Origin: Octopus vulgaris
Taxonomy: Eukaryota
DNA length: 64,000 nucleotides
Direction of reading: 5' to 3'
Assembly: GCA_951406725.2 (NCBI GenBank)
Contig: OX597814.1
Coordinates: 134,540,001-134,604,000, forward strand
Below, in pieces: positions 8,281 to 64,000 of the stretch (within the stretch, counting starts at the first letter, position 1; every line of letters starts with the position of its first letter). The position numbers were made by a program, and so were the translations under genes. Under the pieces are notes generated by a model, which was not told the origin of the DNA, did not search any database, and saw only the letters and a list, made by a program, of their open reading frames with translations.

Positions 8281-8581
8281 AGTGTGCACATACTAACTGA
8301 TGGACTGTAACTATTATCAAGTGGTATATTTAATCCATCAATCAAGCCCTCAGATATCTTTAGTATAGTTTTCTTTGTTGTAAGCATTCAAACCAGTTCA
8401 GTTTTTCCTCCATTTCTCCACCAGTTTCAGAGGCTTTGCAAAAAGGTCATTAGATCAAAAGGGTGCAGTATTGGCATTAGAGCACACTTAAATTATTATT
8501 CTAAAAACTAGAGGCAATCCCATTTTCATCATATGAATTGTGTTTATTTGAATTATTTTGTTTATTTATTTTTATCTTTAG

Positions 8582-38699: not shown

Positions 38700-39295
38700 T
38701 CAGGTCGGTTTGGAATACCTTTATGTATGGTTCCCGACTTTGTTTCTTCATAACTTTCAGGAAAAATGGATATTTTTCTTCATGAAATTTATTATACACC
38801 TTTCTGGCGGTGTAAGTTTCGATTATGACGGAAATTGTTATGAAGAATTTTACGGATGGCAGGGAGATGAGGAGTTGCAGAAAATTCACATGAGTCAAAT
38901 TTGTTTCCTCATAACTTGTAGAAAAATAGGTATTTTTAAATGAAATTTTTCATAAATATCCTTTAGATGGAGTCGAATACAAATGTATCGAAGTTTTATG
39001 AGAAAAAAAGAAAAGGGAAAAATTGGTAGGTGCACACACAGTCATACTGACATCGGTATAAAATGGAAATTGACATTTAAAAAAAATTATGTAATGTGTG
39101 TCTATGTTTGCGCGATGCGAACACCAATTATTTAAAATTTAAAAAAAAAAAAACATCAAATACCGATATAGTCACAATCTAGATCACTCGAAAGATATTT
39201 GTAGAAATTTTCATTAAAAAATAGGGATTTTCCCGAAAGTTATGAAGAAGAGTTCCATAGGGGGTGCGCATACATGTGTAGGTATGCCCTTGATT
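38700..39295. mobile_element. MITE/foldback-like relic with sub-repeats
   Basis: cataacttt..gaaaa..gg...tttt..atgaaattt motif in direct (38749, 38910) and inverted (~39205-39245) orientation; the same motif occurs at 42.8-43.8 kb. Confidence 0.55.
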
Positions 39296-42200
39296 TAATA
39301 GACATCTATAAACATAGACGTTTACCTAGAGAAAATAAAAACATGAAAATAGTTCCATGTAAATATCATCGATTTATATTGAAATTGATTCCCATGTAAC
39401 ATAGCATAGTAAACCTTATATCTTCTGTTCCTCTATAAATCAAATATTTAATTTCATTTTTCATTTCAATATAGAGCTAAGACATATGACACATTTTCGA
39501 GATTCTACATAATTTTCTCTAAAATGGCAGTCTCAGCCGTAACTGTTGCGTAGCACTGACCTTTGATGATTCGTTGCTAACATTTTAATTATAATCTGCA
39601 CTATGCGTAACTTAGCTTGAAGTAATTGTCTTTTTTCTGATTACACTATTTTGTTCATGTAGATTTATTATATTAGATATTGACGAAAAACTACTGCCAA
39701 CACAATCACAGGTTATATAATTTAGAGGACGTTATTTCGGAGTATATTCTATAACATTCATTAAAAAAATATTATGAGAATGAGTTTTTCGATTTTTATT
39801 TTCTGCATTTGAACTTTTAAATAGTAAAATATATAAACATTCAGCTGTCATCATAAAGTATTGATATTGTTAACTATATCTGATCTACTTTTTTAAATGA
39901 CTTACCATATATAACAGAAAACAATATATCACGAAAATATCGATTTTTTTTTATTCCGTCGATTTATTGTTTCACATTCCCGTTGGTAGTTATTAATAGT
40001 TTTTATAAATTATACAATAAAATTATACGTCGTTATAAAAAATGTAATGCTTTGATTTATTTAGTTGTGTTCTGAAATATACACCCACCTCATAATTGCC
40101 ATTTTGTATATCAAGTTACAAAGAGAACTAATTTTAATAATTAACTTTTGGATGATTGAAGAAAATACAATTTATTATTATAATCTTTGCACTGGCGGTA
40201 GAAAATTATCAGTTTTAATTGCTGTCATACCCAATTAATTATACACACATTTCTAGATTACGCAGAACACTGGTTTCAAGTAATTCTTTTTTTTTAAGAC
40301 GAATGTACCATAAAGACGTAGAAAATATTAAACCAGAAAGTAACTTAATAAATAAGAATTGGGTTAAAAGGAAATAACAACAAGTAACTTCAATTAATAA
40401 TTTTATTACAGAGGCACAAAGGATTTAAATTTAATGGGAAGGTAAGGGTGAATGACCTTTCGAAAATGTCAATTACCATCATCAATATGAATATATAAAG
40501 TTCTGATGACACAATCACATTTTTTTAATATTACGCTATAATAAACGAATTATATTGTACTAGTTCGACACCCGTGACTTTGCTGATGGTAGATAGTAAA
40601 ATTTTTAGTTAAAATTTTGTTGTGTCTAGGCAATATTAACACACGCACTGGTTTAATTCCACCACTCCCTTATTATTAAATTGCTTAAATATCTATCTAA
40701 CTAGTCGATTGTTTAATTTTAGTTTAAAGTTTGTCCGTTTAAAAGTTACACACATAATATATGTGTGTGTGCATATATATATATATACACACACACACAT
40801 TATTAACTTCAATAGACTTAAACGAAATAGCAACACCATGAATCGAAACTGGGATGGAAGCGATTGTTTGTGAAGTATAACTGCGTCACACTTGTAACCC
40901 ACGACCTTTAGAAATGTATTTCTATATGTCCTTATAAGGAAATAGCTGTTTGGCATAGTGTGACTATTTCTGTCATGCGCATTTTGCCCGACCGTACATC
41001 ACCCGTTTAAATATAATCTTCCGCCAGTAATATTTTATATTTACAAAGTATATTGTTTAATACTAAAATTCAAGAAATACTTATATTACATTTATATTAT
41101 ATTTTGAATTATTTTATACTATACTATATAATAGAATCTGAATAAAATTGTTTTTTTAAAAGGAACTATATTATGCGCATGATCTCAGCGATCAGTCTCG
41201 TATTAATATCAAATTCTTATTGTGACGCATAGTTTGGAGAAATCGCTCATACTGAATGGACGTTCGGGAAATTTTATCATAAATTTGGTTTGCTATTTTC
41301 ACTGTCTGGTAAGACAAAAATGTATTCTGATTTATTAACTATAATAAAATACTTCGTTCTTAAAATTAACTTTGTTTTTCTTGCTTTTTTAAAGCTTTAC
41401 TCACTTCTTCATAGTTTTTATTTCTTATCTAGCGGATTATGCTGATGTAGTGTGTGCCATCTTGAAAACGGAAGAAATTTGATTATGCTCTCAACTGAAA
41501 TGCAAACTACTTGTGGGTTTCTTTCTTCTGGGTAAGCGAACTCAAGTAGTTGACCCTATAAGTAACCACTTAATATTTAGTGTTGTTTACGTATAAGAAT
41601 TAAATAAAATTTTGAAGTTTCTGCTCTTAAGTTCTTAAAATAAAAATAACTTTCTTGGTTCCTTGCTGTTAAATTTTCTTTTCACAGTTCAACGCTGAAA
41701 TAGAAATTCTTGCCAGTTTGCTGTTTTGGTTTTGCCATCACGTAGGGAATAATATATACATATAAAGCAAAAAGGACGCTAAGGTTGGCTTTTCATTGCC
41801 TCATTATTACAATTAAAAAGAATTATGAGATAACGTTAAATTTATATTTGCAATAATTTATTCACTTGTAATAAAAAAACAAAAAAAAACAACCCCGCAT
41901 TACTTTTTAATGCTTAGGATTAGCAAAGTAGACCACCAAAATGATTATTTGCCACACTTTTATAACCTTTCTTTTCAGTTAATCACTGGACTAAATTCCT
42001 AATTATATACATCGTTTTGCCTGACCCAGATTCCTGCATACAGATATCTTACTGGATTTAAAAGGTTGGCTTTTCATTGCCTTTTCAGAAATTGACATTT
42101 AAAAACAAGATAATCCCCTTTGGTAAATTAATTTTTCTACAGTTGATTGTTGCTAACTTGGTTAAGTCTATCCCAGCTACACAACTTTTAGTGCTGGTTT

Positions 42201-42667
42201 CGTTATTTTGTCTAGTTGAGGCATGTAGAATCATGCTGTTTCGTTTGTCGGGAACAGCAGAGAAGTTGAATACGTTTAAAATTATAATAAATTCGTTTTT
42301 ATTTAAAATTGTTCAACTCTATTAATTGGTGTATACGTTTTTGTGTAAACATTGTTTCAGCTAGTAGCAATTTTCAAGTTGCTATCGCTTTGTAGTAAGA
42401 AGCCTTTGTGTTCCTAAAGGATCCTAAAGTCCGATATGGAGGTAATTATAAGATATTTTGTTTCTGAATCCCCATCAATAGCTTTTTTTTTTCATGGCAT
42501 TCATTCGTAAGTTTATTGTAAAATGTGAAGTAAATATAACCAGAAAAATTACCAAAAAAATTCGGTCCCCCTTTTTTTATTATTTGATCTTGAAAACAAG
42601 GCACTACTGTACATCGCGTGTATCATTTTACTAGAAACTTTCTTGATTCCATATCTGTGAGTTTAAA

Positions 42668-43500
42668 ATGACTCTGAAATGAAAACCTAAAAAAAAAAAA
42701 AAATTACTGGAATGGAAGTAAAAACTGGGGGAAACGAATATGAAAAAATGAGCGCAAAGCAACGGGAGGGTGGGACTTCAGAAAATTAACAAGATCCGAG
42801 CTTTTCCCTCATAACTTTTAGGAAAATGGGCTTTTTTAATGAAATTTGTTAGGGAAAACTTTTCAGAGAGGGTGGGGAGAGGACTTCGGAAAATTAACAA
42901 GATTCGAGTTTTTCCCTCACAACTGTATGTTTGTATATATGTTTATATGTATGTATCTATAGATAGACAGTAATAACGAGTGAATGAGAACGACGAAGGG
43001 TTAAAAAAGCGTATAATTGAAAATGAAACAAAATCGAAGGCAAAACACTAAAAATTATTGAAATGGGGTAGAAATAGTACTACGCTAGGGTATCCGTAGA
43101 AAGTTGAATGTGATTTCGGAATATAACAAGGTAAAACCAAGATTATTTTATAATAGTAATGGTATTTATGTAAAATTTTAATTGTAAAAACACCAATTTC
43201 CTAAAAGTTACAAGGGATAAATTCGGATTTTGTGAATTTTCCGAAGTCCTCTTCCTACTCTCTTGGAAAAGATTTTCCACACAAATTCCTTTATAATCGT
43301 CATGTATTCAGTTTGAAAGGTATTTCTATAAAATTTCATTGAAAATCCCCATGTTCCTAAGAGTTACGTGGTAAAAACTCGGATCTTGTAAATTTTCCGA
43401 AGTCCTCTTCCCACCATCACATTTTTTCATATTCGTTTCCTAATCATTGTTTTACACCCATTCCAGTATTTTTTGGGGGGATTTTCATTTCCAGGTCAAG
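42668..43500. mobile_element. Foldback-like element with ~260-300-bp imperfect inverted arms
   Basis: gaaacgaatatgaaaaaatg...gacttcagaaaattaacaagatccgag (42731-42800) vs ctcggatcttgtaaattttccgaagtc...cattttttcatattcgtttc (43378-43439); arms have internal sub-repeats; another partial arm at 43700-43815. Confidence 0.75.
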
Positions 43501-43959
43501 ATGTAAATGGTTAACCTGTCATACAGCTTAAACTAAAAAAAAGAAATGTAAGTTGGGGGTTATCTTTAAAATTAAATTTTGACATACAGTGTAAGGTAGT
43601 TCTGTCAAAAAACTAACACCGTTTTTATTTGGTCAATATAAAGATTTTCATTCGTGAACAGAAAAAAATAAAACCAGCCTGCTAGGTGTTAACATGTAGA
43701 AAACGAATATGAAAAAAATTTGCGCTAACGACCCTTGGGGTTTGGGTGGGGAGGACTTTCGGAAAATTCACAAGATGATTTTTCCGTCATAACTTTCGGT
43801 TAAAGGGATGTTTTCTACATACTTGTTAACACCCAGTTGGCTGGTTTATTTATTTTTTTTTTGTTCACGGGTGTAGATGTTTATATTGACCCATTTGGTG
43901 TGCTGGTGGAATCGCAGCTTTTGCAGAAAATATGGCAATTTGCCTTTAAAACAAGCTTT

Positions 43960-44220
43960 TAACAATTGAGACCCGAGAGAATGACGAGGTTGATAGGCTC
44001 CGGCTGGGGGAATTGAAATGCCAAAAAGGCATTCTTTCGATATAGATATTTTGTCATTCCTTCCCAGCTGTTTTAATTTTACCAAACACACCATCAAAAC
44101 AGCTAGGAAGGAATGACAGATAAAGTATCTATATCGAAAGAATAGGACCTTCTGGTTTTCCCCACTTCAGGTTCTATCTATCTATCTGCTCAGTCGAAGT
44201 CGACTCTCGGTTACTTGTTG
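43960..44220. repeat. Long palindrome (probable MITE)
   Basis: Arms 44031-44074 and 44096-44143 are nearly perfectly complementary, with weaker pairing further out. Confidence 0.8.
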
Positions 44221-46944
44221 GATCAGTGTCCTCCAGTCAGTCCCATCCTGGGCCGCTTCTGGGTATTCACACACATTTCAGGAGATAAGTGTACAATAGT
44301 TAAATGTTGATACTCGCGGTGATATACAGTAATGACTGTGAAAGCTATTAGCATGTTTCTGAGACTATTTTTCAGGCATGTATTTTCTTTGAATCTATTT
44401 TAAAGTTTAGCGTGATAACTAATTTTAGTTCCTATGGCAGATTGCCGAGGTTTGTCTCGTTTCTGGCTTACATGAAATTTCAGTACTTGTTGCTTGACTG
44501 AAGTGGGAGTAAATCTTTGTAAACATCTTTTTGAATATCACGAAAGCACTAATACGAGGCTCTCAAAAAGAACTTTCTGAATTTTTAAATTTGAAGCGCA
44601 AACTCTACTGATGACTACCTATCACCTAGATTCGCCTGTAAAATATAACGCGTGAAAACCAAATTGTGATATGATCTTGGAATGGTTTCACTTAAACTTT
44701 TTTCCATTCAGTCACGTTAATGAATATTTGGCAATTTTTAATAACATATTCACGTATAACAAGCCTAGTATACAATTTACACCCAATTGATTAAGCTAAA
44801 TTTTTAATTCTTCAACTTGAATCGTACTTGCGCTTTTTATGGCATGTTGATGACACGATTAAGGGTGAAGCCATAACATTACTTCATTCCGACTTCCTCA
44901 GTTTTCTCTTGGCAAGGATATTGGGGTGGTTTGCCATTGCTTTCCCCTTTTTAATTACTGATAAAAATTTTCGGGAAATTTGTGACGACTGTTAAGCACT
45001 GATTACGGGTTAACCAATACATCCGAAAGAAAAACTGTCCTATTTACGTTCCCATTTAATATTGCTCAGAACTTATTTTTGGTAATTCTAAAAATTTTGC
45101 TTAAGTGATTGTTTTCCACAGATTGAACTTTTCCTCATTCTAAGTAATGAGACTTCTCGTAAATAAAGTAAGTTGGGATAATACACATAGAAATTTTAAG
45201 GATTTTTTTTTTTCTAAAACTTTAAAAAAATACTTAAAACAACTTTTTTTTGTAACTAACACTCTCATCTACATGAAAGCAAGCAACAATGAGTGTAGTT
45301 GTGTATTCAAATCTTGATTCTTCTGTTTCCAATTGTCTTACGTGAGTTTTAATCTTGGAAATTTTTGTTTGAACTGTCATGTTCAAATGTCGGGCAGCAC
45401 TATTCTCTCCCAGGACCCTATGAAAGTGTATTCTCCAAGGCGAAAAGTGGGTGTTATTACAAATGATATCTAATTGTTCAACTCCAACGCAAGAAGGCTC
45501 ATCCTCATCGCAAATAATGGATGTAAATCTGTATTGTAATATCGATGTCACCTCCCAAAATGAAGGGGAGGTAAATGTGATAAACTTCGGTGATTTCTGC
45601 CACTTCAATTTTTCTATCAAACTATGATGGGTATGTCAGTGTGAACCAATGTCGGGGCATCTGATTTGACATTCGTTCGGCAATCAATGAGGTATATCAA
45701 AACATTGCTACCATGCTGTTAGTATAGCTTACAGGTGTGTTAAATCTAATGTTAAGGTAAAGTAAAATGTGAAACGGGCAGTAATAACAAAGTCGGAAGA
45801 AAAATGGAAGTCAATATTTAAATTTATATGTATAGGATAAAATTAGATGTTAAATTTCGATTACTGATTTTAAAATTCTTGTATCTTCGTACTGACAGGG
45901 TGAGAAATTGCTAGTTCTGTATTGCATTTTTTTTAGCTAACCATATCTGATCGAACGGGCACCTGACATCATTGTCTTAAAAATGGGCAGTTCCCTTTTG
46001 TCGTTATTTCTGATTTTGTTTTTGTTTCACTTCAGCATTTTTCTTCTCTTTTCTAAGATAAGATTTAATCCAAAGGAACATTTGTGGTATTATCTTGAAG
46101 TGTAGCAATAAAAAAAGTGATGAACAGCAAATAAAAGAAGGCAATTTTACTTAGTAATTTACAACCTTACATCACTTTCAAATTTTTGTTTGTGATGAGG
46201 ATATGAAAGCCTAATTATATTGATTTATTTGAATAATTATCTGACATTCATTTGTAATGACACACTGATGTCTTGATGAGGTAAACACTTTCAGTGGGTT
46301 TTGAGAACCTAATCCTGATTTAAAATCTATTTTGTATTTTCATTTTTTTTGCAAATGAAGCTTTCTACCACAATGAACATAAATCACACTTGAAACCTTG
46401 AGATACAAGGTTTTAAAATTAAGACTTAATGACTTGTGCATACACAGTGATGTTACATAATTCTGTTCTGGATTTGCAACTGTTTGGGAAGGGTGTTCAT
46501 GCATGGGTTGGATAACTTTTTCCTAACTCAATACCTCTTCAGGTAGAAGGCTTACTGAATATTGACTCGACTATGAAAAATATGCTGTTCTCTGGACCAG
46601 TAACGGTAAGTATTAGTGTTTGACCTGTGGCACCTAAAAGATTACATATTAGAATTGAGTGTAGCAAAGTAGTTTCACATCCTTGTGATGTCTTGGATGA
46701 GCATGATTGACTTGTGATGAATGGTTGTATTGAGTTGGATGTGATTGATTATATGAGGATTTAGCTAGTAGGTCAGATCTTTATATTGTGGCTATTATAC
46801 TTAATCATTGGGCTGCCTTAATATTAGGACACTGCCTTCATTGTTTTATTCATTATACAGACACCATTGCTTTGATAATTCAATGCAAGGAAATATGCAT
46901 CCACTTGGGTGTAATAAGATATTACTAGAGAAATTTTTACAGCA

Positions 46945-47062
46945 CACTAATACACACAAACTGATTGCTCCAAGTGTCATGTAAGAATTGGGTAGGAGTG
47001 AAATTGAACCTGGAACTATGTAATTTTGAAGAGGACTCACACCACAGTTACACCTGCACCCA
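46945..47062 (-). mobile_element. Decayed tRNA-derived SINE
   Basis: Reverse complement gggtgcaggtgtaactgtggt...ccaggttcaatttcac...gacacttggagcaa resembles the SINE head at 4047. Confidence 0.55.
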
Positions 47063-48899
47063 CGTTTTATTTGTAATTATCACTCAAATGATATGACACT
47101 AATACCAATGGGGTGGGGTAACTATCTGCTCAAGTTTTTCTTTCAGCTTTTTCTTTTTTTTTTTTATAATTTCAAAAATGTCATCTTTATTGAAGGACCA
47201 AACCCTAAAGAGCAAATTATGCTCTTCAGTGATCTTCACATTTCATCAAGTGACACATCAAAAGCTTACATAAGGTAAAAACTGGAATTGAACTTCTTTT
47301 TTGCTGAAACACGTGAAATTAGACTTGTTGGTAAATCTCACATTTACACATTTTAGAAACTCCAGGAATTGCAATTTAGAGATGAGCAGGATATTTATTA
47401 TAGGGCAAGTTTGCTTTAGGTTTGAAGATGCTACCATTAGTAACCTAAGTTTTTATATTTGTTTACCTTATATTGTATTTTCACATCACTTGAGCCTATA
47501 TATTTCTCCAATTTATGTCAGGTGCATTGATCCAGAAATCTGTAGCTAAGCACTGAAAAGCCAAAACATTTAAAATATTGGAATTATTTTTAGGATTTAG
47601 TGTAATTACATTGTTTATACTATTACTTAATACACTGCAAAGGATATATTACGAAACTAATTTGACAAACTGAAGCTCTTAGATAATCGCAATTTTGAAT
47701 TGGCACATTAATAATTTGGAATATACCAATTTCTCATATGAAATTTTTTAAAACACTAAGTGTTAAGATTCTTAGCTCATCTAATGCAATTCACATGTGA
47801 AAAAAGAAAATGGTTTGCTATAAACCTTACTCTACATTTAAACATTGCAAGCAATTTAGTTGGAGCAGAGTTGAAGTTTCTGACATTAGTCTTTACTCAG
47901 ATTGATACGACATTAAAATTGTTCCTAAATATTTATTGGTTTAATAGTCATCCATACTATGATAATCTGAACAGGTTTTCAAGTATACCTCTAAATACAT
48001 TTGATGCAAAATCTGTAGCTATGCACTTTACATATTCAAGTCCACACTTTGGTAGCTGGATTTTCAGAGGAATCTTCCCGACCATTCCTGTATTATGTCA
48101 ATAGTCTTGAGTCCCTTTATTTCATGAATTAAAAACAGATTTAGTTATTTTAGGTAACTAATACAAAAACAATTAGGCTGAAGCTGAAATTAGATTAAAC
48201 CTGTTGAATTTTTTATGTACATCTTTGAATTTGATATAAGTAAAGAAAATTGACTTTTTAAGTGAGGATGTCTCTCAGCTGGAACTCTAAATTTTATAGT
48301 TTAAATATTTACAATGATACTGCATTTTCTTTCCCTTAAAAAAAAAAATACAGTTCAGTATATTCTAGATGTTATTGCATAATATGATTTCATTGCATTT
48401 GAGGTTTGGATTCTTTGGCTAAGAGAAATGGTTTCCCTGGATCAACCCCAAAATTTGACAAAGGTAGGACTCTTGCCTTTTTAATTGGCATTGTCTTGCA
48501 TAATTATATTCTTATTGTTCCTTAAATTCACTACAAAAGAAAATGATCTTTTGAATTGATAATGGTTTGATGTTCATCTTAAATTGGATGCTATTTGATA
48601 GATGGAAGTAACATTTGTAATGATTGACATGTAAGTGCTGAACAAAAAAAAATTCTTGTGTGTTATATGCACACCCAGTAAGTTTTAAACAGGAAAGATA
48701 AATAGCTATAAAATGTAAATGGTTTTGCATTTCAATATAATTTTATTACAGTTGAGTCTTTATGTTGAACATTCTATATCTAAATTATATATAGCATGGT
48801 GTTTTCTACTCTTGGCTACCTTTTTTTCCTCCTCCTTTTTGATCATGTTTCTACATTCTTGATTTTCTGCAACTACTACAATGCGATATGTAGAATATA

Positions 48900-49397
48900 T
48901 TGGGTTGTCCAGAAAGTTCGTGCCGATTTATAGTAGCTTACATTTTGACTTATTTTAGAACATGGTTGAGTCCATAAAATAGGATTTGACTACACCTCCA
49001 TTTAGAGCACAGTTTAAGCTATCTTTTTGTGGTTATGTTCCTATAACCCTTTAAAATGGATAAGAAAGTTCATTTTTGACACTTGATGCTTCGGGAACCA
49101 GACAAAAATTGCTGCAGCACATCTGGGATGTGTTACCCCACCCTCCATATTCACCAGATATTGCTCCTTCGGATTTCCACTTATTCAGGTCTCTGCAGAG
49201 TAGATAAAATGGTAAAAATTTCAATTTCTTGGATGACGTAAAAAGATACCTTGATGAATTCTTTGCCATGAAACCACCTCAGTTCTGGAAAGAGGGTATT
49301 TTCAAGTTAATGGAAAGCTGGAGACGTATTGTGCAACAAAATGGTTCATATTTGGTTGATTAAAAATGTAATGGCACGAACTTTCCGGACAACCCAA
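48900..49397 (+). mobile_element. Internally deleted mariner element
   Basis: TA|ttgggttgtccagaaagttcgtgcc...ggcacgaactttccggacaacccaa|TA (25-bp TIR, one mismatch); encodes WDVLPHPPYSPDIAPSDFHLFRSLQ...QNGSYLVD* with an internal stop. Confidence 0.95.
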
Positions 49398-52300
49398 TAT
49401 AGTATCTGTGATACAGTGATTATGTGCAAAGAAGTTCACTACACAGTGAATATACATGGTAAATAGAGCTTACAGAAACTGAATTTTTAATTCGACCAGA
49501 ATGCAATATATCTTTTCAAGTCCTGAAACTTAGATATAGCATAATGGTATCTGTGATACAGAACATATTCTAATGATTACTACAGCTGTTAATATATGCA
49601 ATAGAAATTTGATCTATTATTTCACAGTAAATTAAACCTAAGGAACTAGCAAGTTAAAATAATGCTCTGGTAATGGTACAGCAAAGAAAGTCTGTAGGGG
49701 ATACTGGATACTAGTTTCAGAAGTTGACCAGAATGCAATCAATATGCATAGTTTGCATGTCATACAAACAAGGTACAAATATATCAAGGCTTTCTTTTTA
49801 TTCCCATTTTGAGTCGGTTAAAATCTGTGGAATATTTTGATAATGTATTTTTAGATACTGAATGGTGTGATGAAATAATTTGGTTTCTTCATACTAACTT
49901 GGAGAAAACTGGATAAAATTTTATTTCAGGTGAGCAAATAAACTTCATGGTAAATTGGTGAAAATCAAGTCAAGATGTTAGAAGATACATTGGAGCAAAT
50001 CATTTCAGAATTTGAATTGGAAACAAAATATTATTTTAGTCGAGCATTGAGAAATTTGGATGAATTTTGCTCAGGTACATTGTCTAATCTCAATTACTCA
50101 TACTGCTCTGCTGCACACCCCACATCAGTGTGATTAATAAGGATCTAGCAGGCTTCAACCACCATCTCAGTTGTGTTTCTACTTGACGAGTTAACTGATC
50201 CCATTGTTTTTAACTGACATCACACTGAACACGTTATAGCTTCCCCCACTCAATGCTTTTCATAAAAACATCAACAAAAAGTGTTCAGAACAAACATCAA
50301 TTGCAGTCTGGATTAGATGAGAAGGTAATGATGAACAGTGTTCTTCCTAAAATATTAAAAAAAAAAAAAAAAAAAATATCCTGATAGTAGTTTGTATCAG
50401 ATGAAGAGCTGCCCCATAATTCTTATAGTTTCAAACTAACTTATCCAATTTCTGCAATACATTTTGTAAAAGCCATGTCCATTTTAAAATATTTAAGATC
50501 TTTAATGGTTACTTGAGAATGTTCGAATGCTTGCTTAATGAGTTTTCAAAATCTGCAAGTTATAGATTTTCAAAATGGAATGGTTACTAAATTTAAAAAA
50601 AAAAAAGTATTGAATTTTCACCAGTTTAAGTAATGTATGCTGTTTACTAAAACATTTTGTGTGAAGTTCTTTACTGATGCATCATGCCAGTAATCATTTA
50701 AAAAAACAAACAAAAGATGTTCTAAAATAGAGGAGCAGCACGAGAGAAAAATCTGAAGTAAACTAGTGAAGAGGTCGCACACAAAGAAGCCAGAAATATT
50801 ACTTTCCTTGATATTGCATCGTATTAATTCATCAGTCTGAGTATATTCAGGACATTCAATATGTTCTGATATTTCTGTTACTATAAAAATATGTTAAACA
50901 ATTTCATGAGAAGTTGAAATACCAGTTAACAAGACAGTTAAAAGACAGGAAAAAATTCTACACTGTGTGAAAACTTATTACCATTTAGTATATTTGGGAT
51001 TAAATTCAAAGTTTGCTTTTATTTGTACTTTGGCAGTGGAGATGGACATTGAATTGAAGTAAAGAGCCTGTCTACCTATCAGATAAGATGTTAATTCATT
51101 TGTTGTTAATCTCTCTGCATTGAGTAAGTCATTCTTTATACAAATATGGTGTTATCAGCACAAAGACAATTTTATGCCAACTAATGGCGAATGCATTTGT
51201 TTCTCCAGACCTTTGGGTAGGTATAATGGAAAATGTTTTGGGACAATGAATGAAGTTGAAATTGACAAGCAGGGAAATTCAGCTTTTATAGAACACTTTT
51301 GCTTTCTCTTTTCATAATATGGAGATGTATATGTGAATGAAAATTGTTCTCATAAAATAATTTGGTGATATTTGTTATTGCTGAATGGTTACAAAGTTTA
51401 TTTTGCATCCATTCTGCATTCTATGCCAGTGTGTGCTTGTTTAAAATTTTGCAAGCGAAATGGCTGCTTGGTGCTATGAAAGAAAGAACACATTATACTT
51501 GATAAAGTATGTTAGAGCAAACATTTCAGCATGTTATAGTCCTTTGATCTGTCAGCTCCTATCAAACGATACAACTCGTGGCCAGGTTGGATGTTTCTAA
51601 GTAACTGTGATTTCTGTGTACATGATGGGCATGTTTGTATTAGTTTATCATTCATTGGCAGATACAATGAGAAGGCCAGTTTCACGTCTCAGGTAAGCAG
51701 GCTTCATCTTCCAGATGAAACATTTTACTTAAGAATGGTTTGCAACAGTAATAGAATTCACCTTAGTTTTGTGTAAGAACCAAATGTTCAGTTTTGTAAA
51801 ACTAGCATTGTGGGTCTATAGTGGCTGCAGGGACAGTTACCTATAGACCAGTAGTAAAGAAGCATTTAGGGATTTAGTTGCTATTTTTAGTGTATTTCTC
51901 AAAGATATTCACAGGTTGGGGTATGGTCTAAATAATGCTTTCCTCACATAGTTTTGCAGTACAGTTAACATCAGTGTGAAGAGGATAGTATAATACCTGA
52001 AATACGACTAGGTAGATGGCAAATATGGACTGTTGAATAATGAAAATAAATACAGTAGGACTTCACAATATAGCATGTAGATTTTTATAAATATGTTTGT
52101 TTCATAATACGTAGTGATAACAGCATTTTCAGACAGAAACTAGATGGAGGCAATAAAGCATTCAAGGAAAATTAATATTGTAGCAGTATAGGAATAGATA
52201 TGAAATGTTTTTATCATGCTGAAACTTTACAAAGTTCTATATGTATTAATATAGAATAGTAGTGAAGTTGAATTGATATTACAAATCAGTTGTTGGTAAT

Positions 52301-53639
52301 TTGTAGAGCTGAAAGTTGCCTGTTTATTCTGTTTTTGTTTTTCTTTTGAGTGCTTTACTTGCAGTGAAAAAAGCTAAAGCGAATATAGTACATTAGGTAA
52401 CAGGCACACAATGTTTAGGTAAACAAGACAAGTTTGGATTCGGAGAGACTGAAGCAATGGAATTTTCACCGGTAGGAACGTATGTTTGCGTATTCATTCA
52501 ATTTCAAAGCCACATTAATATGTATCAATAGAAGTAAATGTTACATAAAAGCAAAAGGCTTCCTTTTTATTAAGCAAAAATGGTATTGTTTAGCAGTTTT
52601 ACTGTTAGCATGTTTCTCAGTTTCCATCTTAGGCAGATAAAACAATGACCTAAAGATCCTACATAGTTACATTCAGATAAGAGAACTTTTTGTCATTTGT
52701 GTTTCGAAAAATGCTGTTTGTTTCTTACAAGATATTTAGGTGATGAAATTGGAAAGCGTCTTGATGTGTATGTAAGATTGAAGATAACAGCAATGAAATT
52801 CAACTGGTAGGTCATTGTTCATGCATATTTCACTAAAAATATTTCATCCGGTCTGTGTGTGGTGAAACTGTGAGTGTAAGAATTAAGTTGTTTCACTGTA
52901 AAAGAAATGACGTTGTTCTGTGCATGCACGTGTTTGTATATTTGTCATTGGCAGATGTGATGACATGAAGAGGTTATCACAAGATAACATCACCAAGATA
53001 AGACGTGTTACATCATGCGATTTACAAGGTAGGGAATTGTTTCAGCACATGATGGTAAAGAAAATAGCATTTTAACACTTCTGTGTAGGAGTAAAGTATG
53101 GATGTAAGAATTGTTTCTTGTTTATATGTTTCTGTCGTTGGCAGATGGGATGACAACAAGAGGACTGGATAGACAACAGCACAAAGATAAGCATTATTCA
53201 ATTCTGTTTAGTGTGATTGAATTGGTTTAGTGGTTTTTATGTAGATATTTGGAGGAGGATTGTGCTAAATGTAAAGTTTAAACTTGATTATTTGGTAAGC
53301 ATGGAAAATGCTGGAGATAAGTAATTGCATAGAGAGTTGATGATATTTTGTGTTGGTTGCAAACATTTCTCTTCATAGGTTTTGGAATTGTTGAAAAATG
53401 CTTTGTAAATGCTTTCAATTAAGAGTGATTGGAGAAATTTAGGGCCAAACCATTTGTTTTTTTTATGCATGTTATTCTTCGACAGGTACAAAAGCCCTCA
53501 ATGAAAAGTGTGACTTCCAATTTGAGAAAAGTTTGTTTGTAGTTTCTATCACTTTGTGTTTCATCTGTGTATTGTAAGTATGAAAAACGCTGCATGTTGT
53601 AAGAGGGTCAAGAATTTCAGTGATCTCTGAATTAGTGGT

Positions 53640-56600
53640 ACGTTTGTTTGCTTTTTATGATGCTTTATTTTAACACATATATTTTAGTATCAATTTATGA
53701 TCGAAAAAACTATTATAATTTACTGTTGCGTGCTAGTGTTTACTCATCTCATTACAATTTGATTGCCAGTTAACTATATTATTACTTTACAAAATTGTGT
53801 TCCTTTTCAGCATAGTGAAATTATTATTGAGTTGTTTGTTGGTTATTTATTGAGCACAGTTTTACCTGCGTCTTTTTGTTGTTTTTCTGTTTGCTTCCCT
53901 TGCAGTGAAAAAAAGCTTAACCTAGCAAAGTACAGTAAGTAAGGAGTTTAGTTCTTTGATATAAAATGACCTGTATTGTTGTTTGCAACATGCTTTCGAT
54001 ATTTGACACACAATCTGTAGGTAAAAGAAACAGAAAGTTGGACTTGAAGAGACAAGAAATAAAAGTCTGGTTGGTACGACCACATTTTTGCCTATTCATT
54101 TGTTATATACATAGTAAGAATGTTTGTCTTTATTTTCTTAACACCTTTTGCTTTATTTTCTTAACACATATATTTCAGTATCAATTTATGATCGTAAAAT
54201 GTATTGTAAATGACTGTTGTGTGCTAGTGTTTATTCATCTCTTTACTATTTGATTGCTAGTTAACTATATTATTACTTTATAAAATTGTGTTCCCTTTCA
54301 GCATTGTGAAATTATTATTGAGTTGTTTGTTGGATATTTGTTGAGCACAGTTTTGTTTGTGTGTTTCTCTTGTTGTTTTTTTATTTGGTTTCCTTGCAGT
54401 GCAAAAGCTTAAGCTAGCAAAGTTACAGTAAGTAAGCAGTTTAGTTCTTTGATATAAAATGTCCTGTATTGTGTGCAACATGCTTTCTATATTTGACACA
54501 GAATCTGTAGGTCAAAGAAACAGATAGTTGGACTTGAAAAGACAGAAGGAATGAAATTCTGGCTGGTACAACAGCATTTTTGCCTATTCATTTGCTATAT
54601 ACATAGCAAGAATGTTCGTCTTAATTTTCTTAAAACCTTTGGCTTTATTTTCTTAACACATATATTTTAGTATCAATTTATGATCGTAAAATTTATTCTA
54701 AATGACTGTTGCGTGCTAGTGTTTACTCATCTCATTATTATTTGATTGCTAGTTAACTATGTTATTACCTTATAAAATTGTGTTCCCTTTCACCATTGTG
54801 AAATTATTATTGAGTTGTTTGTTGGTTATTTATTCAGCACAGTTTTACCTGTGTCTTTTTGTTGTTGTTTTTCTGTTTGCTTTCCTTGCAGTGAAAAAAG
54901 CTGAAGCTAGCAAAGTACTGTAAGTAAGCAGTTTAGTTCTTTGATATAAAATGACCTGTATTGTTGTTTGGAACATGCTTTCGATATTTGACACACAATC
55001 TGTAGGTAAATGAAACAGAAAGTTGGACTTGAAGAGACAAAAGAAATGAAATTTTGGTTGGTACGACCCCATTTTTGCCTATTCATTTGTTATATACATA
55101 GTAAGAATGTTCGTTTTTATTTTCTTAACACATATATTTTAGTATCAATTTGTGATTGTAAAGATATTGTACTTTACTGTTGCGTGCTAGTGTTTACTCA
55201 TCTCTTAACTATTTCATTGCTAGTTGACTATATTATTACTTTATAAAATTGTGTTCCCTTTCAGCATTGTGGAATTATTATTGAGTTGTTTGTTGGTAAT
55301 ATGTTGAGCACAGTTTTGCTTCTGTGTTTCTGTTGTTGTTTTTCTGTTTGCCTTCCTTGCAGTGAAAAAAAGCGTAAGCTAGCAAAGTACAGTAAGTAAG
55401 CAGTTTACTTCTTTGATATTAAATGACCTGAATTGTTGTTTGCAACATGTTTTCGATATTTGACACCCAATCTGTAGGTAAAAAAACAGAAAGTTGGACT
55501 TAAAGAGACAGAAGTGAAATTCTGGTTGGTACGACCGCATTTTTGCCTATTCATTTGTTATATACATAGTAAGAATGTTCGTCTTTATTTTCTTAATACC
55601 TTTTGCTTTATTTTCTTAACACATATATTTTAGTATCAATTTATGATTGTAAAGATATTGTACTTTACTGTTGTGTACTAGTGTTTACTAATCTCATTAC
55701 TATTTGATTGCTATTTAACTATATTATTACTTTACATAACTCTGTTCCTTTTCAGCATTGTGAAATTATTATTGAGTTGTTTGTTGGTTATTTATTGAGC
55801 ACAGTTTTGCCTGTGTCTTTTTGTTGTTGTTTTTTCTGTTTCCTTTCCTTGCAGTCAAAAAAAGCTTAAGCTAGCAAAGTACAGTAAGTAAGCAGTTTAG
55901 TTCTTTGATATAAAATGACCTGTATTGTTGTTTGCAACATGCTTTCGATATTTGACACACCATCTGTAGGTAAAAGAAACAGATAGTTGGACTTGAAAGG
56001 ACAGAAGCAACAAAATTCTGGCTTGTACAACCGCATTTTTGCCTATTCATTTGCTATATATATAGTAAGAATGTTCGTCTTTATTTTCTTAAAACCTTTT
56101 GCTTTATTTTCTTAACACATATATTTTAGTATCAATTTATGATCGTAAAATGTATGGTAAATGACTGTTGCGTGCTAGTGTTTATTCATCTCTTTACTAT
56201 TTGATTGCTAGTTAACTTTATTATTACTTTATAAAATTGTGTTCCCTTTCAGCATTGTGAAATTATTACTGAGTTGTTTGTTGGTTATTTGTTGAGCACA
56301 GTTTTGTATGTATGTTTCTCTTGTTGTTTTTTTTATTTGGTTTCCTTGCAGTGCAAAAAGCTTAAGCTAGCAAAGTACAGTAAGGAAGCAGTTTAGTTAT
56401 TTGATATAAAATGTCCTGTATTGTTGTTTGCAACATGCTTTCTATATTTGACACAGAATCTGTAGTTCAAAGAAACAGATAGTTGGACTTGAAAAGACAG
56501 AAGGAATGAATTTCTGGCTAGTACAACAGCATTTTTGCCTATTTATTATTGAGTTGTTTGTTGGTTATTTATTGAGCACAGTTTTGCCTGTGTCTTTTTG

Positions 56601-59600
56601 TTGTTTTTCTGTTTGCTTTCCTTGCAGTGAAAAAAAGCTTAAGCTAGCAACGTACAGTAAGTAAGCAGTTTAGTTCTTTGATATAAAATGACCTGTATTG
56701 TCGTTTGCAACATGCTTTCGATATTTGACACACAATCTGTAGGTAAAAGAAACAGAAAGTTGGACTTGAAGAGACAGAAGAAATGAAATTCTTGTTGGTA
56801 CGACCGCATTTTTGCCTATTCATTTGTTATATACATAGGAAGAATGTTCGTCTTTGTTTTCTTAACACCTTTTGCTTTATTTTCTTAACACATATATTTT
56901 AGTATCAACTTATGATTGTAAAGATATTGGACTTTACTGTTGCGTACTAGTGTTTACTAATCTCATTACTATTTGATTGCTATTTAACTATATTATTACT
57001 TTATAAAATTGTGTTCCCTTTCAGCATTGTGAAATTATTATTGAGTTGTTTGTTGGTAATATGTTGAGCACAATTTTGCTTCTGTGTTTCTGTTGTTGTT
57101 TTTCTGTTTGCTTTCCTTGCAGTGAAAAAAAGCTTAAGCTAGCAAAGTACAGTAAGTAAGCAGTTTAGTTCTTTGATATAAAATGACCTGTATTGTTGTT
57201 TGCAACATGCTTTCGATATTTGACACACCATCTGTTGGTAAAAGAAACAGAAAGTCGGACTTGAAGACACAGCAGAACTGAAATTCTGGTTGGTACGGTC
57301 GCATTTTTGCCTATTCATTTGTTATAGCATAGGAAGAATGTTTGTCTTTGTTTTCTTAACACCTTTCGCTTTATTTTCTTAACACATATATTTTAGTATA
57401 AATTTATGATTGTAAAATATTGTACTGTACTGTTGTGTACTAGTGTTTACTAATCTCATTACTATTTGATTGCTATTTAACTTTTTTTTTACTTTATATA
57501 ACTCTGTTCCCTTTCAGCATTGTGAAATTATTATTGAGTTGTTTGTTCCTTATTTGTTGAGCACAGTTTTGTTTGTGTGTTTCTGTTGTTGTTTTTCAAT
57601 TTGGTTTCCTTGCAGTGAAAAAAGCTTACGCTAGCAAAGTACTGTAAGTAAACAGTTTAGTTCTTTGATATAAAATGACCTGTATTGTTGTTTGCAACAT
57701 GCTTTCTATATTTGACACACCATCTGTAGGTAAAAGAAACAGATAGTTGGACTTGAAAGGACAGAAGCAATAAAATTCTGGCTTGTACAACCGCATTTTT
57801 GCCTATTCATTTGCTATATACATAGCAAGAATGTTCGTCTTAATTTTCTTAAAACCTTTGGCTTTATTTTCTTAACTCATATATTTTAGTATCAATTTAT
57901 GATCGTAAAATTTATTCTAAATGACTGTTGCGTGCTAGTGTTTACACATCTCATTATTATTTGATTGCTAGTTAACTATGTTATTACCTTATAAAATTGT
58001 GTTCCCTTTCACCATTGTGAAATTATTATTGAATTGTTTGTTGGTTATTTATTCAGCACAGTTTTACCTGTGTCTTTTTGTTGTTGTTTTTCTGTTTGCT
58101 TTCCTTGCAGTGAAAAAAAGCTGAAGCTAGCAAAGTACAGTAAGTAAGCAGTTTAGTTCTTTGATATAAAATGACCTGTATTGTTGTTTGGAACATGCTT
58201 TCGATATTTGACACACATTCTGTAGGTAAATGAAACAGAAAGTTGGACTTGAAGAGACAGAAGAAATGAAATTTTGGTTGGTACGACCCCATTTTTGCCT
58301 ATTCATTTGTTATATACATAGTAAGAATGTTCGTTTTTATTTTCTTAACACCTTTTGCTTTATTTTCTTAACACATATATTTTAGTATCAATTTGTGATT
58401 GTAAAGATATTGTACTTTACTGTTGCGTGCTAGTGTTTACTCATCTCTTTACTATTTCATTGCTAGTTGACTATATTATTACTTTCTAAAATTGTGTTCC
58501 CTTTCAGCATTGTGGAATTATTATTGAGTTGTTTGTTGGTAATATGTTGGGCACAGTTTGCTTCTGTGTTTCTGTTGTTGTTTTTCTGTTTGCCTTCCTT
58601 GCACTGAAAAAAAGCGTAAGCTAGCAAAGTACAGTAAGTAAGCAGTTTACTTCTTTGATATTAAATGACCTGAATTGTTGTTTGCAACATGTTTTCGATA
58701 TTTGACACCCAATCTGTAGGTAAAAAAAACAGAAAGTTGGACTTGAAGAGACAGAAGTGAAATTGTGGTTGGTACGACCGCATTTTTGCCTATTCATTTG
58801 TTATATACATAGTAAGAATGTTCGTCTTTATTTTCTTAACACCTTTTGCTTTATTTTCTTAACACATATATTTCAGTATCAATTTATGATTGTAAAGATA
58901 ATTGTACTTTACTGTTGCGTACTAGTGTTTACTCATATCATTACTATTTCATTGCTAGGTGACTATATTATTACTTTATAAAATTGTGTTCCCTCTCAGC
59001 ATTGTGAAATTATTATTGGGTTGTTTGTTGGTAATATGTTGAGCACAGTTTTGCTTCTGTGTTTCTGTTGTTGTTTTTCTGTTTGCTTTCCTTGCAGTGC
59101 AAAAAGCTTAAGCTAGCAAAGTACAGTAAGTAAGCAGTTTAGTTCTTTGATATAAAATGACCTATATTGTTGTTTGCAACATGCTTTCGATATTTAACAC
59201 ACAATCTGTAGGTAAAAGAAACAGAAAGTTGGACTTGAAGAGACAGAAGAAATGAAATTCTTGTTGGTACGACCGCATTTTTGCCTATTCATTTGTTATA
59301 TACATAGGAAGAACGTTCGTCTTTGTTTTCTTAACACGTTTCGCTTATTTTCTTAACATATATATTTTGGTATCAATTTATGAATGTAAAGATATTGTAC
59401 TTTACTGTTGTTTACTAGTGTTTACTAATCTCATTACTATTTGATTGCTATTTAACTATATTATTACTTTATATAACTCTGTTCCTTTTCAGCATTGTGA
59501 AATTATTATTGAGTTGTTTGTTGGTTATTTATTGAGCACAGTTTTGCCTGTGTCTTGTTGTTGTTGTTTTTTCTGTTTCCTTTCCTTGCAGTGAAAAAAG

Positions 59601-62600
59601 CTTAAGCTAGCAAAGTACTGTAAGTAAACAGTTTAGTTCTTTGATATAAAATGACCTGTTTTGTTGTTTGCAACATGCTTTCTATATTTGACACACCATC
59701 TGTAGGTAAAAGAAACAGATAGTTGGACATGAAAGGACAGAAGCAATAAAATTCTGACTTGTACAACTGCATTTTTGCCTATTCATTTGCTATATACATA
59801 GCAAGAATGTTCGTCTTAATTTTCTTAAAACCTTTGGCTTTATTTTCTTAACACATATATTTTAGTATCAATTTATGATCGTAAAATTTATTCTAAATGA
59901 CTGTTGCGTGCTAGTGTTTACTCATCTCATTATTATTTGATTGGTAGTTAACTATGTTATTACCTTATAAAATTGTGTTCCCTTTCACCATTGTGAAATT
60001 ATTATTGAGTTGTTTGTTGGTTATTTATTCAGCACAGTTTTACCTGTGTCTTTTTGTTGTTGTTTTTCTGTTTGCTTTCCTTGCAGTGAAAAAAAAGCTT
60101 AAGCTAGCAAAGTACAGTAAGTAAGCAGTTTAGTTCTTTGATATAAAATGACCTGTATTGTTGTTTGGAACATGCTTTCGATATTTGACACACAATCTGT
60201 AGGTAAATGAAACAGAAAGTTGGACTTGAAGAGACAGAAGAAAAGAAATTTTGGTTGGTACGACCCCATTTTTGCCTATTCATTTGTTATATACATAGTA
60301 AGAATGTTCGTTTTTATTTTCTTAACACCTTTTGCTTTAATTTCTTAACACATATATTTTAGTATCAATTTGTGATTGTAAAGATATTGTACTTTACTGT
60401 TGCGTGCTAGTGTTTACTCATCTGTTAACTATTTCATTGCTAGTTGACTATATTATTACTTTATAAAATTGTGTTCCCTTTCAGCATTGTGGAATTATTA
60501 TTGAGTTGTTTGTTGGTAATATGTTGAGCACAGTTTTGCTTCTGTGTTTCTGTTGTTGTTTTTCTGTTTGCCTTCCTTGCAGTGAAAAAAAAGCGTAAGC
60601 TAGCAAAGTACAGTAAGTAAGCAGTTTACTTCTTTGATATTAAATGACCTGAATTGTTGTTTGCAACATGTTTTCGATATTTGACACCCAATCTGTAGGT
60701 AAAAAAAACAGAAAGTTGGACTTAAAGAGACAGAAGTGAAATTCTGGTTGGTACGACCGCATTTTTGCCTATTCATTTGTTATATACATAGTAAGAATGT
60801 TCGTCTTTATTTTCTTAACACCTTTTGCTTTATTTTCTTAACACATATATTTTAGTATCAATTTATGATTGTAAAGATATTGTACTTTACTAATCTCATT
60901 ACTATTTGATTGCTATTTAACTATATTATTACTTTATATAACTCTGTTCCTTTTCAGCATTGTGAAATTATTATTGAGTTGTTTGTTGGTTATTTATTGA
61001 GCACAGTTTTGCCTGTGTCTTTTTGTTGTTTTTTCTGTTTCCTTTCCTTGCAGTCAAAAAAAGCTTAAGCTAGCAAAGTACAGTAAGTAAGCAGTTTAGT
61101 TCTTTGATATAAAATGACCTGTATTGTTGTTTGGAACATGCTTTCGATATTTGACACACAATCTGTAGGTAAATGAAACAGGATGTTGGACTTGAAGAGA
61201 CAGAAGAAATGAAATTTTGGTTGGTACGACCCCATTTTTGCCTATTCATTTGTTATATACATAGTAAGAATGTTCGTTTTTATTTTCTTAACACCTTTTG
61301 CTTTATTTTCTTAACACATATATTTTAGTATAAATTTGTGATTGTAAATATATTGTACTTTACTGTTGCGTGCTAGTGTTTATTCATCTCTTTACTATTT
61401 GATTGCTAGTTAACTATATTATTACTTTATAAAATTGTGTTCCCTTTCAGCATTGTGAAATTATTACTAAGTTGTTTGTTGGTTATTTGTTGAGCACAGT
61501 TTTGTATGTATGTTTCTCTTGTTGTTTTTTTTATTTGGTTTCCTTGTAGTGCAAAAAGCTTAAGCTAGCAAAGTACAGTAAGTAAGCAGTTTATTTATTT
61601 GATATAAAATGTCCTGTATTCTTTGCAACATGCTTTCTATATTTGACACAGAATCTGTAGGTCAAAGAAACAGATAGTTGGACTTGAAAAGACAGAAGGA
61701 ATGAATTTCTGGCTGGTACAACAGCATTTTTGCCTATTTATTATTGAGTTGTTTGTTGGTTATTTATTGAGCACAGTTTTGCCTGTGTCTTTTTGTTGTT
61801 TTTTCTGTTTCCTTTCCTTGCAGTCAAAAAAAGCTTAAGCTAGCAAAGTACAGTAAGTAAGCAGTTTAGTTCTTTGATATAAAATGACCTGTATTGTTGT
61901 TTGGAACATGCTTTCGATATTTGACACACAATCTGTAGGTAAATGAAACAGGATGTTGGACTTGAAGAGACAGAAGAAATGAAATTTTGGTTGGTACGAC
62001 CCCATTTTTGCCTATTCATTTGTTATATACATAGTAAGAATGTTCGTTTTTATTTTCTTAACACCTTTTGCTTTATTTTCTTAACACATATATTTTAGTA
62101 TAAATTTGTGATTGTAAATATATTGTACTTTACTGTTGCGTGCTAGTGTTTATTCATCTCTTTACTATTTGATTGCTAGTTAACTATATTATTACTTTAT
62201 AAAATTGTGTTCCCTTTCAGCATTGTGAAATTATTACTAAGTTGTTTGTTGGTTATTTGTTGAGCACAGTTTTGTATGTATGTTTCTCTTGTTGTTTTTT
62301 TTATTTGGTTTCCTTGTAGTGCAAAAAGCTTAAGCTAGCAAAGTACAGTAAGTAAGCAGTTTATTTATTTGATATAAAATGTCCTGTATTCTTTGCAACA
62401 TGCTTTCTATATTTGACACAGAATCTGTAGGTCAAAGAAACAGATAGTTGGACTTGAAAAGACAGAAGGAATGAATTTCTGGCTGGTACAACAGCATTTT
62501 TGCCTATTTATTATTGAGTTGTTTGTTGGTTATTTATTGAGCACAGTTTTGCCTGTGTCTTTTTGTTGTTTTTTCTGTTTCCTTTCCTTGCAGTCAAAAA

Positions 62601-64000
62601 AAGCTTAAGCTAGCAAAGTACAGTAAGTAAGCAGTTTAGTTCTTTGATATAAAATGACCTGTATTGTTGTTTGGAACATGCTTTCGATATTTGACACACA
62701 ATCTGTAGGTAAATGAAACAGGATGTTGGACTTGAAGAGACAGAAGAAATGAAATTTTGGTTGGTACGACCCCATTTTTGCCTATTCATTTGTTATATAC
62801 ATAGTAAGAATGTTCGTTTTTATTTTCTTAACACCTTTTGCTTTATTTTCTTAACACATATATTTTAGTATAAATTTGTGATTGTAAATATATTGTACTT
62901 TACTGTTGCGTGCTAGTGTTTATTCATCTCTTTACTATTTGATTGCTAGTTAACTATATTATTACTTTATAAAATTGTGTTCCCTTTCAGCATTGTGAAA
63001 TTATTACTAAGTTGTTTGTTGGTTATTTGTTGAGCACAGTTTTGTATGTATGTTTCTCTTGTTGTTTTTTATTTGGTTTCCTTGTAGTGCAAAAAGCTTA
63101 AGCTAGCAAAGTACAGTAAGTAAGCAGTTTATTTATTTGATATAAAATGTCCTGTATTCTTTGCAACATGCTTTCTATATTTGACACAGAATCTGTAGGT
63201 CAAAGAAACAGATAGTTGGACTTGAAAAGACAGAAGGAATGAATTTCTGGCTGGTACAACAGCATTTTTGCCTATTTATTATTGAGTTGTTTGTTGGTTA
63301 TTTATTGAGCACAGTTTTGCCTGTGTCTTTTTGTTGTTTTTCTGTTTGCTTTACTTGCAGTGAAAAAAAGCTTAAGCTAGCAACGTACAGTAAGTAAGCA
63401 GTTTAGTTCTTTGATATAAAATGACCTGTATTGTTGTTTGCAACATGCTTTCGATATTTGACACACAATCTGTAGGTAAAAGAAACAGAACGTTGAACTT
63501 GAAGAGACAGATGAAATGAAATTCTTGTTGGTACGACCGCATTTTTGCCTATTCATTTGTTATATACATAGGAAGAATGTTCGTCTTTGTTTTCTTAACA
63601 CCTTTTGCTTTATTTTCTTAACACATATATTTTAGTATCAATTTATGATTGTAAAGATATTGTACTTTACTGTTGTGTACTAGTGTTTACTAATCTCATT
63701 ACTATTTGATTGCTATTTAACTATATTATTACTTTATAAAATTGTGTTCCCTTTCAGCATTGTGAAATTATTATTGAGTTGTTTGTTGGTAATATGTTGA
63801 GCACAGTTTTGCTTCTGTGTTTCTGTTGTTGTTTTTCTGTTTGCTTTCCTTGCAGTGAAAAAAAGCTTAAGCTAGCAAAGTACAGTAAGTAAGCAGTTTA
63901 GTTCTTTGATATGAAATGAACTGTATTGTTGTTTGCAACATGCTTTCGATATTTGACACAATCTGTAGGTAAAAGAAACAGAAAGTTGGACTTGAAGAGA
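53640..64000 (+). repeat. ~494-bp tandem array (23 copies in window, four shortened to ~275 bp) carrying splice-site cassettes
   Basis: ccttgcag|tgaaaaaaagcttaagctagcaaagtaca|gtaagt and variants at 53906, 54400, 54892, 55363, 55855, 56352, 56628 ... 63361, 63856. Confidence 0.97.

Follow-up and report, generated by a model that had tools for sequence, protein, structure and literature searches.

Octopus vulgaris contig C1 carries a tandem repeat whose units look like short exons separated by intron-like gaps, which raises the question of whether these units are spliced copy by copy, as a stock of interchangeable micro-exons, or whether their splice signals have another explanation. We analysed a window of 64,000 nucleotides in which the repeat begins, and followed the repeat beyond it. 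Positions are those of the window, and positions marked ext continue the same count, being the position on C1, the contig that carries the window, minus 134,540,000.

A 34-kb array at a single locus

The repeat forms a long head-to-tail array that overruns the end of the window (64000) by about 24 kb:

53662..64000, then on to C1 ~134,627,966, plus strand: tandem array of ~494-bp units and ~277-bp deletion units with higher-order repeats (sequence alignment)

The array ends at ext ~87,966 and contains 77 units in ~34 kb, 23 of which start inside the window. It is composed of 60 full units of ~494 bp, a single terminal unit and 16 units that deletion has shortened to ~277 bp, and a detached copy at ext 89,508 brings the aligned total to 78. 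The mean pairwise identity of the units is 91% (range 82-100%), and a block of six units is seen about five times. Head-to-tail units, array length and higher-order structure are those of a satellite or macrosatellite. A DNA search of the genome (2.8 Gb, 227 contigs), which sets a lower bound, placed all unit matches on C1 within ~40 kb; such confinement to one locus is also a property of the local repeats of Firre-type lncRNAs. The surroundings hold RTE-like LINEs and long (AT)n runs.

Splice-like signals within the unit

A sequence-only reading of the window had parsed each unit into four short exons, A to D. Its coordinates for unit 4 were exact when we re-read the sequence:

55363..55391, plus strand: exon-like piece A (29 nt, cag...gtaagtaagc; GTAAGTAAGC), strong acceptor and moderate double donor
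55478..55528, plus strand: exon-like piece B, weak sites; kin of 52419-52471 in the flank and, less closely, of the 75-nt piece starting at 52732
55634..55648, plus strand: piece C, sites below all 21 reference acceptors; missing from the 277-bp units
55756..55786, plus strand: piece D, weak sites

The commonest lengths of the pieces are 29 (A), 55 (B), 15 (C) and 31 nt (D), and the intron-like gaps between them measure 67-107 nt. The parse applies to the full units and not, as had been stated, to every unit, since the deletion units (4 of 23 in the window, 16 of 77 in the array) have neither piece C nor the acceptor of D. A complete set of eight splice dinucleotides is present in 13 of the 23 window units and in 46 of 78 copies overall, and the four A and B sites are intact in 74 of 78. 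The A acceptor is YAG in 22 of 23 window copies (CAG 19, TAG 3, CAC 1), as reported, while the acceptor and the donor of D are broken in 7 copies each, counting those in which the site is present. As a sequence layout, an exon repeated in tandem together with its flanking intron is what is seen in genes of the SmPoMuc type.

Splice sites were scored with a generic matrix and compared with the best-candidate sites, close to the match ends, of 21 myosin exons from this genome, for which 21 of 30 loci served. Ranked by the share of reference sites outscored, the A acceptor came first (81%), followed by the A donor and the D acceptor (24% each), the B donor (19%), the B acceptor (5%) and the C acceptor (0%), and the donors of C and D were not among the ten best GTs of the unit. 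The earlier ranking, with A strong and B to D weaker, matches these scores for the A acceptor, the A donor being only moderate, and piece C is probably not an exon. The minus strand of the unit carries an acceptor about as strong as that of A (7.6 vs 7.8 bits), and the number of acceptor-donor pairs in a single unit was no better than in shuffled sequences (1 vs 0.7, P 0.48), so that the four-exon parse of one unit does not go beyond chance. Support for an exon-intron parse comes from the older copies in the flanks and not from the single unit.

Descent from an older exon/intron-like module

The 494-bp unit consists of the last ~160 bp plus the first ~330 bp of an older exon/intron-like module, and thus corresponds to a module junction. 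This module, ~1.5-1.8 kb in size, has been duplicated repeatedly and survives on both flanks of the array:

52270..53820, plus strand: module copy I, 5' of the array; 71-93% identity between module copies
52732..52806, plus strand: 75-nt exon-like piece, open in one frame here and in two 3' copies; no protein relative found

Copies II-V are partial and lie 3' of the array at ext 87.7-92.8 kb, where they are interrupted by a 1.1-kb TTAA-flanked insertion. In the DNA search of the genome nothing comparable to the module was found elsewhere and the 5' flank had one 40-bp match, both results being lower bounds; an intact paralogous gene elsewhere in the genome was also sought by DNA search and not found. 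Judged from the sequence, the array is a young local expansion of a piece of the module.

The modules hold further exon-like pieces, many of them akin to one another. On the plus strand of the older copies we counted 6, 6 and 7 acceptor-donor pairs against expectations of 1.9 (P 0.03), 2.6 (P 0.08) and 1.3 (P <0.01), and on the minus strand of the same copies 0, 2 and 1; for comparison, a real gene at 1000-9000 yielded 16 vs 8.8. The pair test is not clean, since it was positive on the minus strand too, at 44200-50900 (11 vs 4.7) and at 50900-52270 (3 vs 0.6). With a threshold of 2.5 bits, 29 of 34 strong sites were shared between module copies as compared with 401 of 621 weak AG/GT, pairs being counted in both directions; the corresponding values at 1.5 bits were 37/49 and 393/606, and at 0 bits there was no difference. 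The retention of strong sites, 0.85, is close to that of an ancestral site decaying neutrally at 80% identity, which indicates ancestry and not selection. The most likely ancestor of the satellite is a genuine stretch of exons and introns, which went through several rounds of duplication of exons together with introns. The splice-like sites of the modules, which lie on the plus strand and are shared by ancestry, thus support both the exon-intron origin and the strand that had been claimed for the array.

Substitutions at the splice dinucleotides

By parsimony, the 16 splice positions have undergone 9 changes against 18.8 expected (P 0.02), or 9 against 18.1 with CpG columns excluded (P 0.03). 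The deficit was seen at the positions of A and B (3 vs 9.0, P 0.04), with 6 vs 9.1 at those of C and D (P 0.25). When distinct alleles were counted, the values were 8 vs 11.8 (P 0.11), and for alleles confined to the 55 held-out copies outside the window 2 vs 5.0 (P 0.10). The tested sites were picked after the copies had been seen, and a similar-scoring donor left out by the sequence-only reading had 6 changes and is intact in 29 of 61 copies. Columns of exons and introns changed at equal rates (1.00 vs 1.00). The check that had been suggested, whether AG and GT mutate less than the rest of the monomer, therefore gave a split answer: the rate is about half that of the background, but the sites are post hoc and the held-out copies reach only P 0.10. 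The lower rate fits some selection and is no more than a hint of it; most of the pattern is accounted for by the youth of the array, as the same reading had cautioned.

Coding capacity and small RNAs

Piece A is 28, 29 or 30 nt long in 27, 47 and 4 of the 78 copies, and a repeat of A plus B would stay in frame in 3 of 78, which bears out the claim that the frame is not kept. With N/S ratios of 0.7-3.6 over the six frames, the claim that the array is non-coding is likewise supported. If the second donor is used, A is an open 33-nt exon in 45 of 78 copies, with an N/S of 1.3. The repeated exon thus shows neither the frame nor the coding constraint of the SmPoMuc type; nor are the exons mostly multiples of three, as in MEGs, and in place of a secreted protein with a signal peptide we found no continuous frame and no protein relative. 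Two short frames (59 and 47 aa, intronic residues included) had no relatives in the protein collection, which is a weak test, and the Atlas search gave no match. Pfam gave no match near the array in scans of 146 frames (hand-picked from 261, plus two exon pieces) and of 75 (73 from 129). LRR exons follow a rule of 75 nt and phase 2; the 75-nt piece, considered as an exon of this type, had no Pfam support.

The proposal of a small-RNA precursor gained no support from a search of Rfam, which returned no match in the array at E<=5 and none at gathering score in the 3' flank, or from folding, where the lowest z was -1.94 for any 90-nt window and no lower than -0.8 for the putative introns. In the flanks, RTGATGA is present 13 times on the plus strand and 0 times on the minus strand. 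The C/D box pairs had no terminal stem, and the unit scanned contained no such pair. The intron-borne C/D, H/ACA or hairpin element per unit of a tandem snoRNA or miRNA host was accordingly not found.

Sequencing runs covering the locus

Parts of the region 45900-55800 occur in 20 sequencing runs, of which 0 are on record as RNA and 17 are guessed to be RNA. We examined four of the guessed RNA runs over 50760-54150, three of them from one organism (three studies) and one from a second organism. Their contig totals were 45-140 million letters, against a genome of 2.8 Gb and totals of 1,503-3,828 million in three other runs; values so far below genome size argue against whole-genome DNA. GT-AG ends were found at 0 of the 14 joints listed for the four runs, in assembled contigs only, from which rare forms are dropped. 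Contigs of 130-296 nt run unspliced across the A acceptor, the A donor, the B acceptor and the B donor, and longer records, of 1440 and 2245 nt, run along the 3' module copies. Among the pieces listed, no contig spans the whole array with its flanks, and the contigs carry no strand.

In our reading the joints reflect forms present in the genome, namely the 277-bp junction, the boundary between successive units, the module copies on the 3' side and an insertion of 62 letters. The 277-bp junction was seen directly in three runs and the fourth shares the same landing point, while the insertion, at 52402, matches an A-B gap that is absent from the assembled copy I. The presence of the deletion junction in the run from the second organism suggests that the array predates the split of the two organisms, if the labels are right. 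The idea of interchangeable micro-exons finds no support in these contigs of guessed RNA runs, in which none of the 14 joints listed is GT-AG and the A and B sites are crossed unspliced. Combinatorial use of micro-exons is unsupported, and could still occur given that contigs drop rare forms. Two runs had deeper cover on the module copies 3' of the array (~220-400 vs 5-22 in X5; 26-60 vs 0-7 in X13), in contigs that cannot rank parts, and X5 had no cover at 51367-52242, which contigs cannot establish as absence.

Flanking features and the putative host gene

Several candidate features precede the array:

39000..46000, strand unassigned: CpG-rich zone (o/e 0.7-1.2) ahead of a CpG-poor stretch, candidate promoter region; includes palindromic transposon-like DNA
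46543..46605, plus strand: putatively spliced 5' exon candidate of 63 nt with a donor of 6.8 bits
49930..50074, plus strand: putatively spliced 5' exon candidate; holds an ATG frame of 33 codons for which no protein relative was found
51037..51082, plus strand: exon-like piece with an acceptor and, at its end, AG/ATAAG (a donor whose +1 base is A); the pieces at 52637, 52955 and 53145 are laid out alike
51662..51692, plus strand: candidate exon with the strong donor CAG/GTAAGC (8.8 bits) and an acceptor of the same family

AG/ATAAG, found at 51083, 52677, 52998 and 53187, ends four long-diverged types of flank piece, 39-46 nt past the acceptor, and a related piece has /GTAAG. Across five piece types the 7-mer was identical at 62 of 70 positions compared with 124 of 324 in the interior, in an alignment that is anchored and post hoc. 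The stretch could be a defunct donor that was copied along, a pseudo-donor that binds U1, or a GATA DNA motif. Donors made by editing were also considered, and no complementary arm was found within the locus. RGTAAG has a density of 4.9/kb on the plus strand and 0 on the minus strand, and UGUU one of 27.7/kb vs 8.4-8.8.

The upstream coding neighbour is a DUF4503 (SPIDR-like) gene, which is ruled out as the host as its last exon ends near 8,700. Downstream, a RING gene starts at ext ~161 kb (~97 kb past the window) and is an unlikely host, having its own CpG-rich start. Identity with Zmast/Zfest was rejected in a comparison by location alone, these being Z-linked on O. vulgaris chr16 whereas the locus lies on the 226-Mb C1. 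The host gene would lie on the plus strand, be non-coding, though perhaps once coding, and begin within the CpG-rich zone (39-46 kb), with the 3' end of its transcript near ext 95 kb, ~31 kb beyond the end of the window. In octopus, expressed genes are marked by gene-body methylation (PMC9476566). The argument from CpG to gene extent is weak, since the transposon-rich DNA downstream is also commonly CpG-depleted.

Probable inheritance of the signals and alternative explanations

The explanation that we favour, with a probability of about one half, is a young expansion of the older module inside a non-coding gene on the plus strand, of which the RNA is mostly unspliced and the splice signals are inherited passengers. 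Direct observation covers the array, its confinement to one locus, its derivation from a module junction and the lack of a frame. Unequal crossing-over would have expanded the junction piece, as the higher-order repeats and the shared deletion units suggest, and weak sites on gaps of 67-107 nt would mostly be ignored, leaving a U-rich RNA. Any role of this RNA would, by analogy, be that of a nuclear-retained, splice-site-dense transcript with multiple binding of U1 and hnRNP-type proteins, and not the production of isoforms. In mammals, U1 motifs hold lncRNAs on chromatin (10.1101/310433), which makes nuclear retention plausible here.

Three points count against mere passengers, namely the half-rate change at the splice sites, the preservation of the A and B sites in 74 of 78 copies and a common deletion that spares A and B. 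They lend some weight to the view that a non-coding RNA does use A, and possibly B, as cassette exons, each copy being spliced individually in some tissue or at a low level, under weak selection; we consider this reading unlikely. It would explain the strong A acceptor, a GTAAGT donor of A that is intact in 78 of 78 copies, gaps of intron-like size, the absence of any large shared deletion that takes out A or B, and a half-rate at the A and B dinucleotides that has the same direction in the held-out copies. It is opposed by the lack of a spliced joint among those listed for the four runs, by the post hoc choice of sites when an omitted donor of equal score survives intact in no more than 29 of 61 copies, by the P of 0.11 of the allele-count test and by the weak sites of B to D. 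A speculative and rather doubtful proposal is a lineage-specific splice-decoy lncRNA, in which ~80 intact but unused acceptor/double-donor cassettes and the older AG/AUAAG pieces would tether U1 and 3'-site factors, forming a nuclear, copy-number-tunable splicing-factor sponge whose sites are selected for binding and not for splicing.

At the other extreme, the motifs could be chance occurrences in a T-rich unit of a plain satellite, and the covering runs DNA or noise. A single unit that is no better than shuffles, an equal acceptor on the minus strand and the fact that no covering run is on record as RNA all agree with this, but the unit derives from a module with shared splice-like sites on the plus strand and the contig totals of the four runs are small for a 2.8-Gb genome, so we regard it as quite improbable. 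We give still less credence to a repeat-protein gene in the style of SmPoMuc or MEGs, in which A with its second donor would be a symmetric 33-nt exon encoding an 11-residue basic repeat and the 75-nt pieces would be coding. An open A in 45 of 78 copies, a 75-nt piece open in three copies and the 33-codon ATG frame upstream speak for it; against it, the frame is broken in 33 of 78 copies, the N/S is 1.3, no spliced joint was found among those listed and no relative in the protein collection, Pfam or Atlas, although such short queries make this a weak objection. An ex-coding ancestry of the locus is possible. Tandem exon-intron hosts of small RNAs are known, such as SNORD115/116 and C19MC, and the strand bias of RTGATGA would fit a host of snoRNAs, miRNAs, mirtrons or a piRNA cluster; with no Rfam match, no fold of low z and only stemless C/D pairs, this is highly improbable.

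Relation to known repeat systems

Our search of the openly accessible literature listed no article about this locus. Exons repeated in tandem together with their introns are already known, but are usually coding and spliced. The present case traces an exon-intron stretch of a gene to a 34-kb satellite through several dated steps at one locus, and a young array with intact splice signals illustrates that splicing need not follow from them. If the sites were selected yet unused, the array would be a natural splicing-factor decoy of variable copy number, in an animal known for heavy RNA-level regulation.

In SmPoMuc of Schistosoma mansoni, an exon and its flanking introns also form tandem repeats (~1 kb, up to ~20 copies), but the 27-bp exon is coding and spliced (PMC2576457), whereas the octopus array has 77 units at one locus, a lost frame and no splicing seen. 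Schistosoma MEGs share the many very short exon-like pieces and differ in having exons that are mostly multiples of three, secreted products and introns of 0.1-5 kb (PMC10526429), none of which is true of the octopus array. The RRD repeats of Firre, with a candidate role in nuclear retention, are likewise confined to one lncRNA locus and arose with exon-intron structure, but are dispersed and form spliced exons (7 of 13 human exons; PMC4820808), while the octopus copies are head-to-tail, far more numerous and of putative splicing. PNCTR (PMC6224606) and the U1-retained lncRNAs (10.1101/310433) resemble the array as repeat-rich RNAs with many copies of a splicing-factor motif; binding and retention are demonstrated there and would be expected by analogy here. 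Drosophila hsr-omega has a unique 5' part followed by a tandem array of 5-15 kb within a long non-coding RNA from one locus, and differs in that nothing in the part of the source available describes its 280-bp unit as derived from exons and introns (PMC9865238). It may be the closest model of how the octopus array works, the likeness being one of layout, with nuclear location and hnRNP binding putative in the octopus.

Exon-like ends and an allele of the older module

The sequence AG|ATAAG recurs as the end of exon-like pieces in the flanks of the tandem array of ~494-bp units (the young array), at 51081, 52675, 52996 and 53185 in the window and in the copies in L007, a piece of the extension downstream of the window. 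There were 13 such ends in 7.8 kb of flanking sequence, compared with 0.12-0.17 per kb in controls, and none in the young array itself. At position 52402, in the older module copy located 5' of the array (copy I, 52270-53820), two sequencing runs guessed to be RNA contained 62 additional letters, indicating that the assembled copy I carries a deletion allele of the gap between pieces A and B.

Transposon-type elements, satellite and hairpin

L007 also contains a 1.1-kb insertion at about 6286-7378 (90,286-91,378 counted from the window start), which has TTAA sites on either side and short terminal inverted repeats and is piggyBac-like. Its junctions were also found in contigs from the two organisms, A and B, represented by the runs. 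Within the candidate host gene is the remnant of a mariner-like element (48896-49401), whose terminal inverted repeats measure 29 bp. An almost intact LINE on the plus strand (26669-29955) has frames for an endonuclease, a reverse transcriptase and a PHD-like domain; after it comes an (AT)n run of 926 bp. A LINE and an assembly gap adjoin a second satellite (11415-26001; unit 391 bp, about 37 copies, 98% matches) with a pronounced strand skew.

A near-perfect hairpin of about 110 nt (44031-44143) matched several miRNA families weakly, with every score far under the gathering score, and is a candidate for either a novel miRNA or a MITE.

Neighbouring coding genes

The final exons of a multi-exon coding gene are located at about 1690-8710 on the plus strand. 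One of its frames matched the SPIDR-type Pfam family DUF4503 (E 4e-4, under the curated cut-off). Further downstream, a RING-finger gene with a CpG-rich start of its own has its first coding exon at 7231-7371 of extension piece L014, plus strand.
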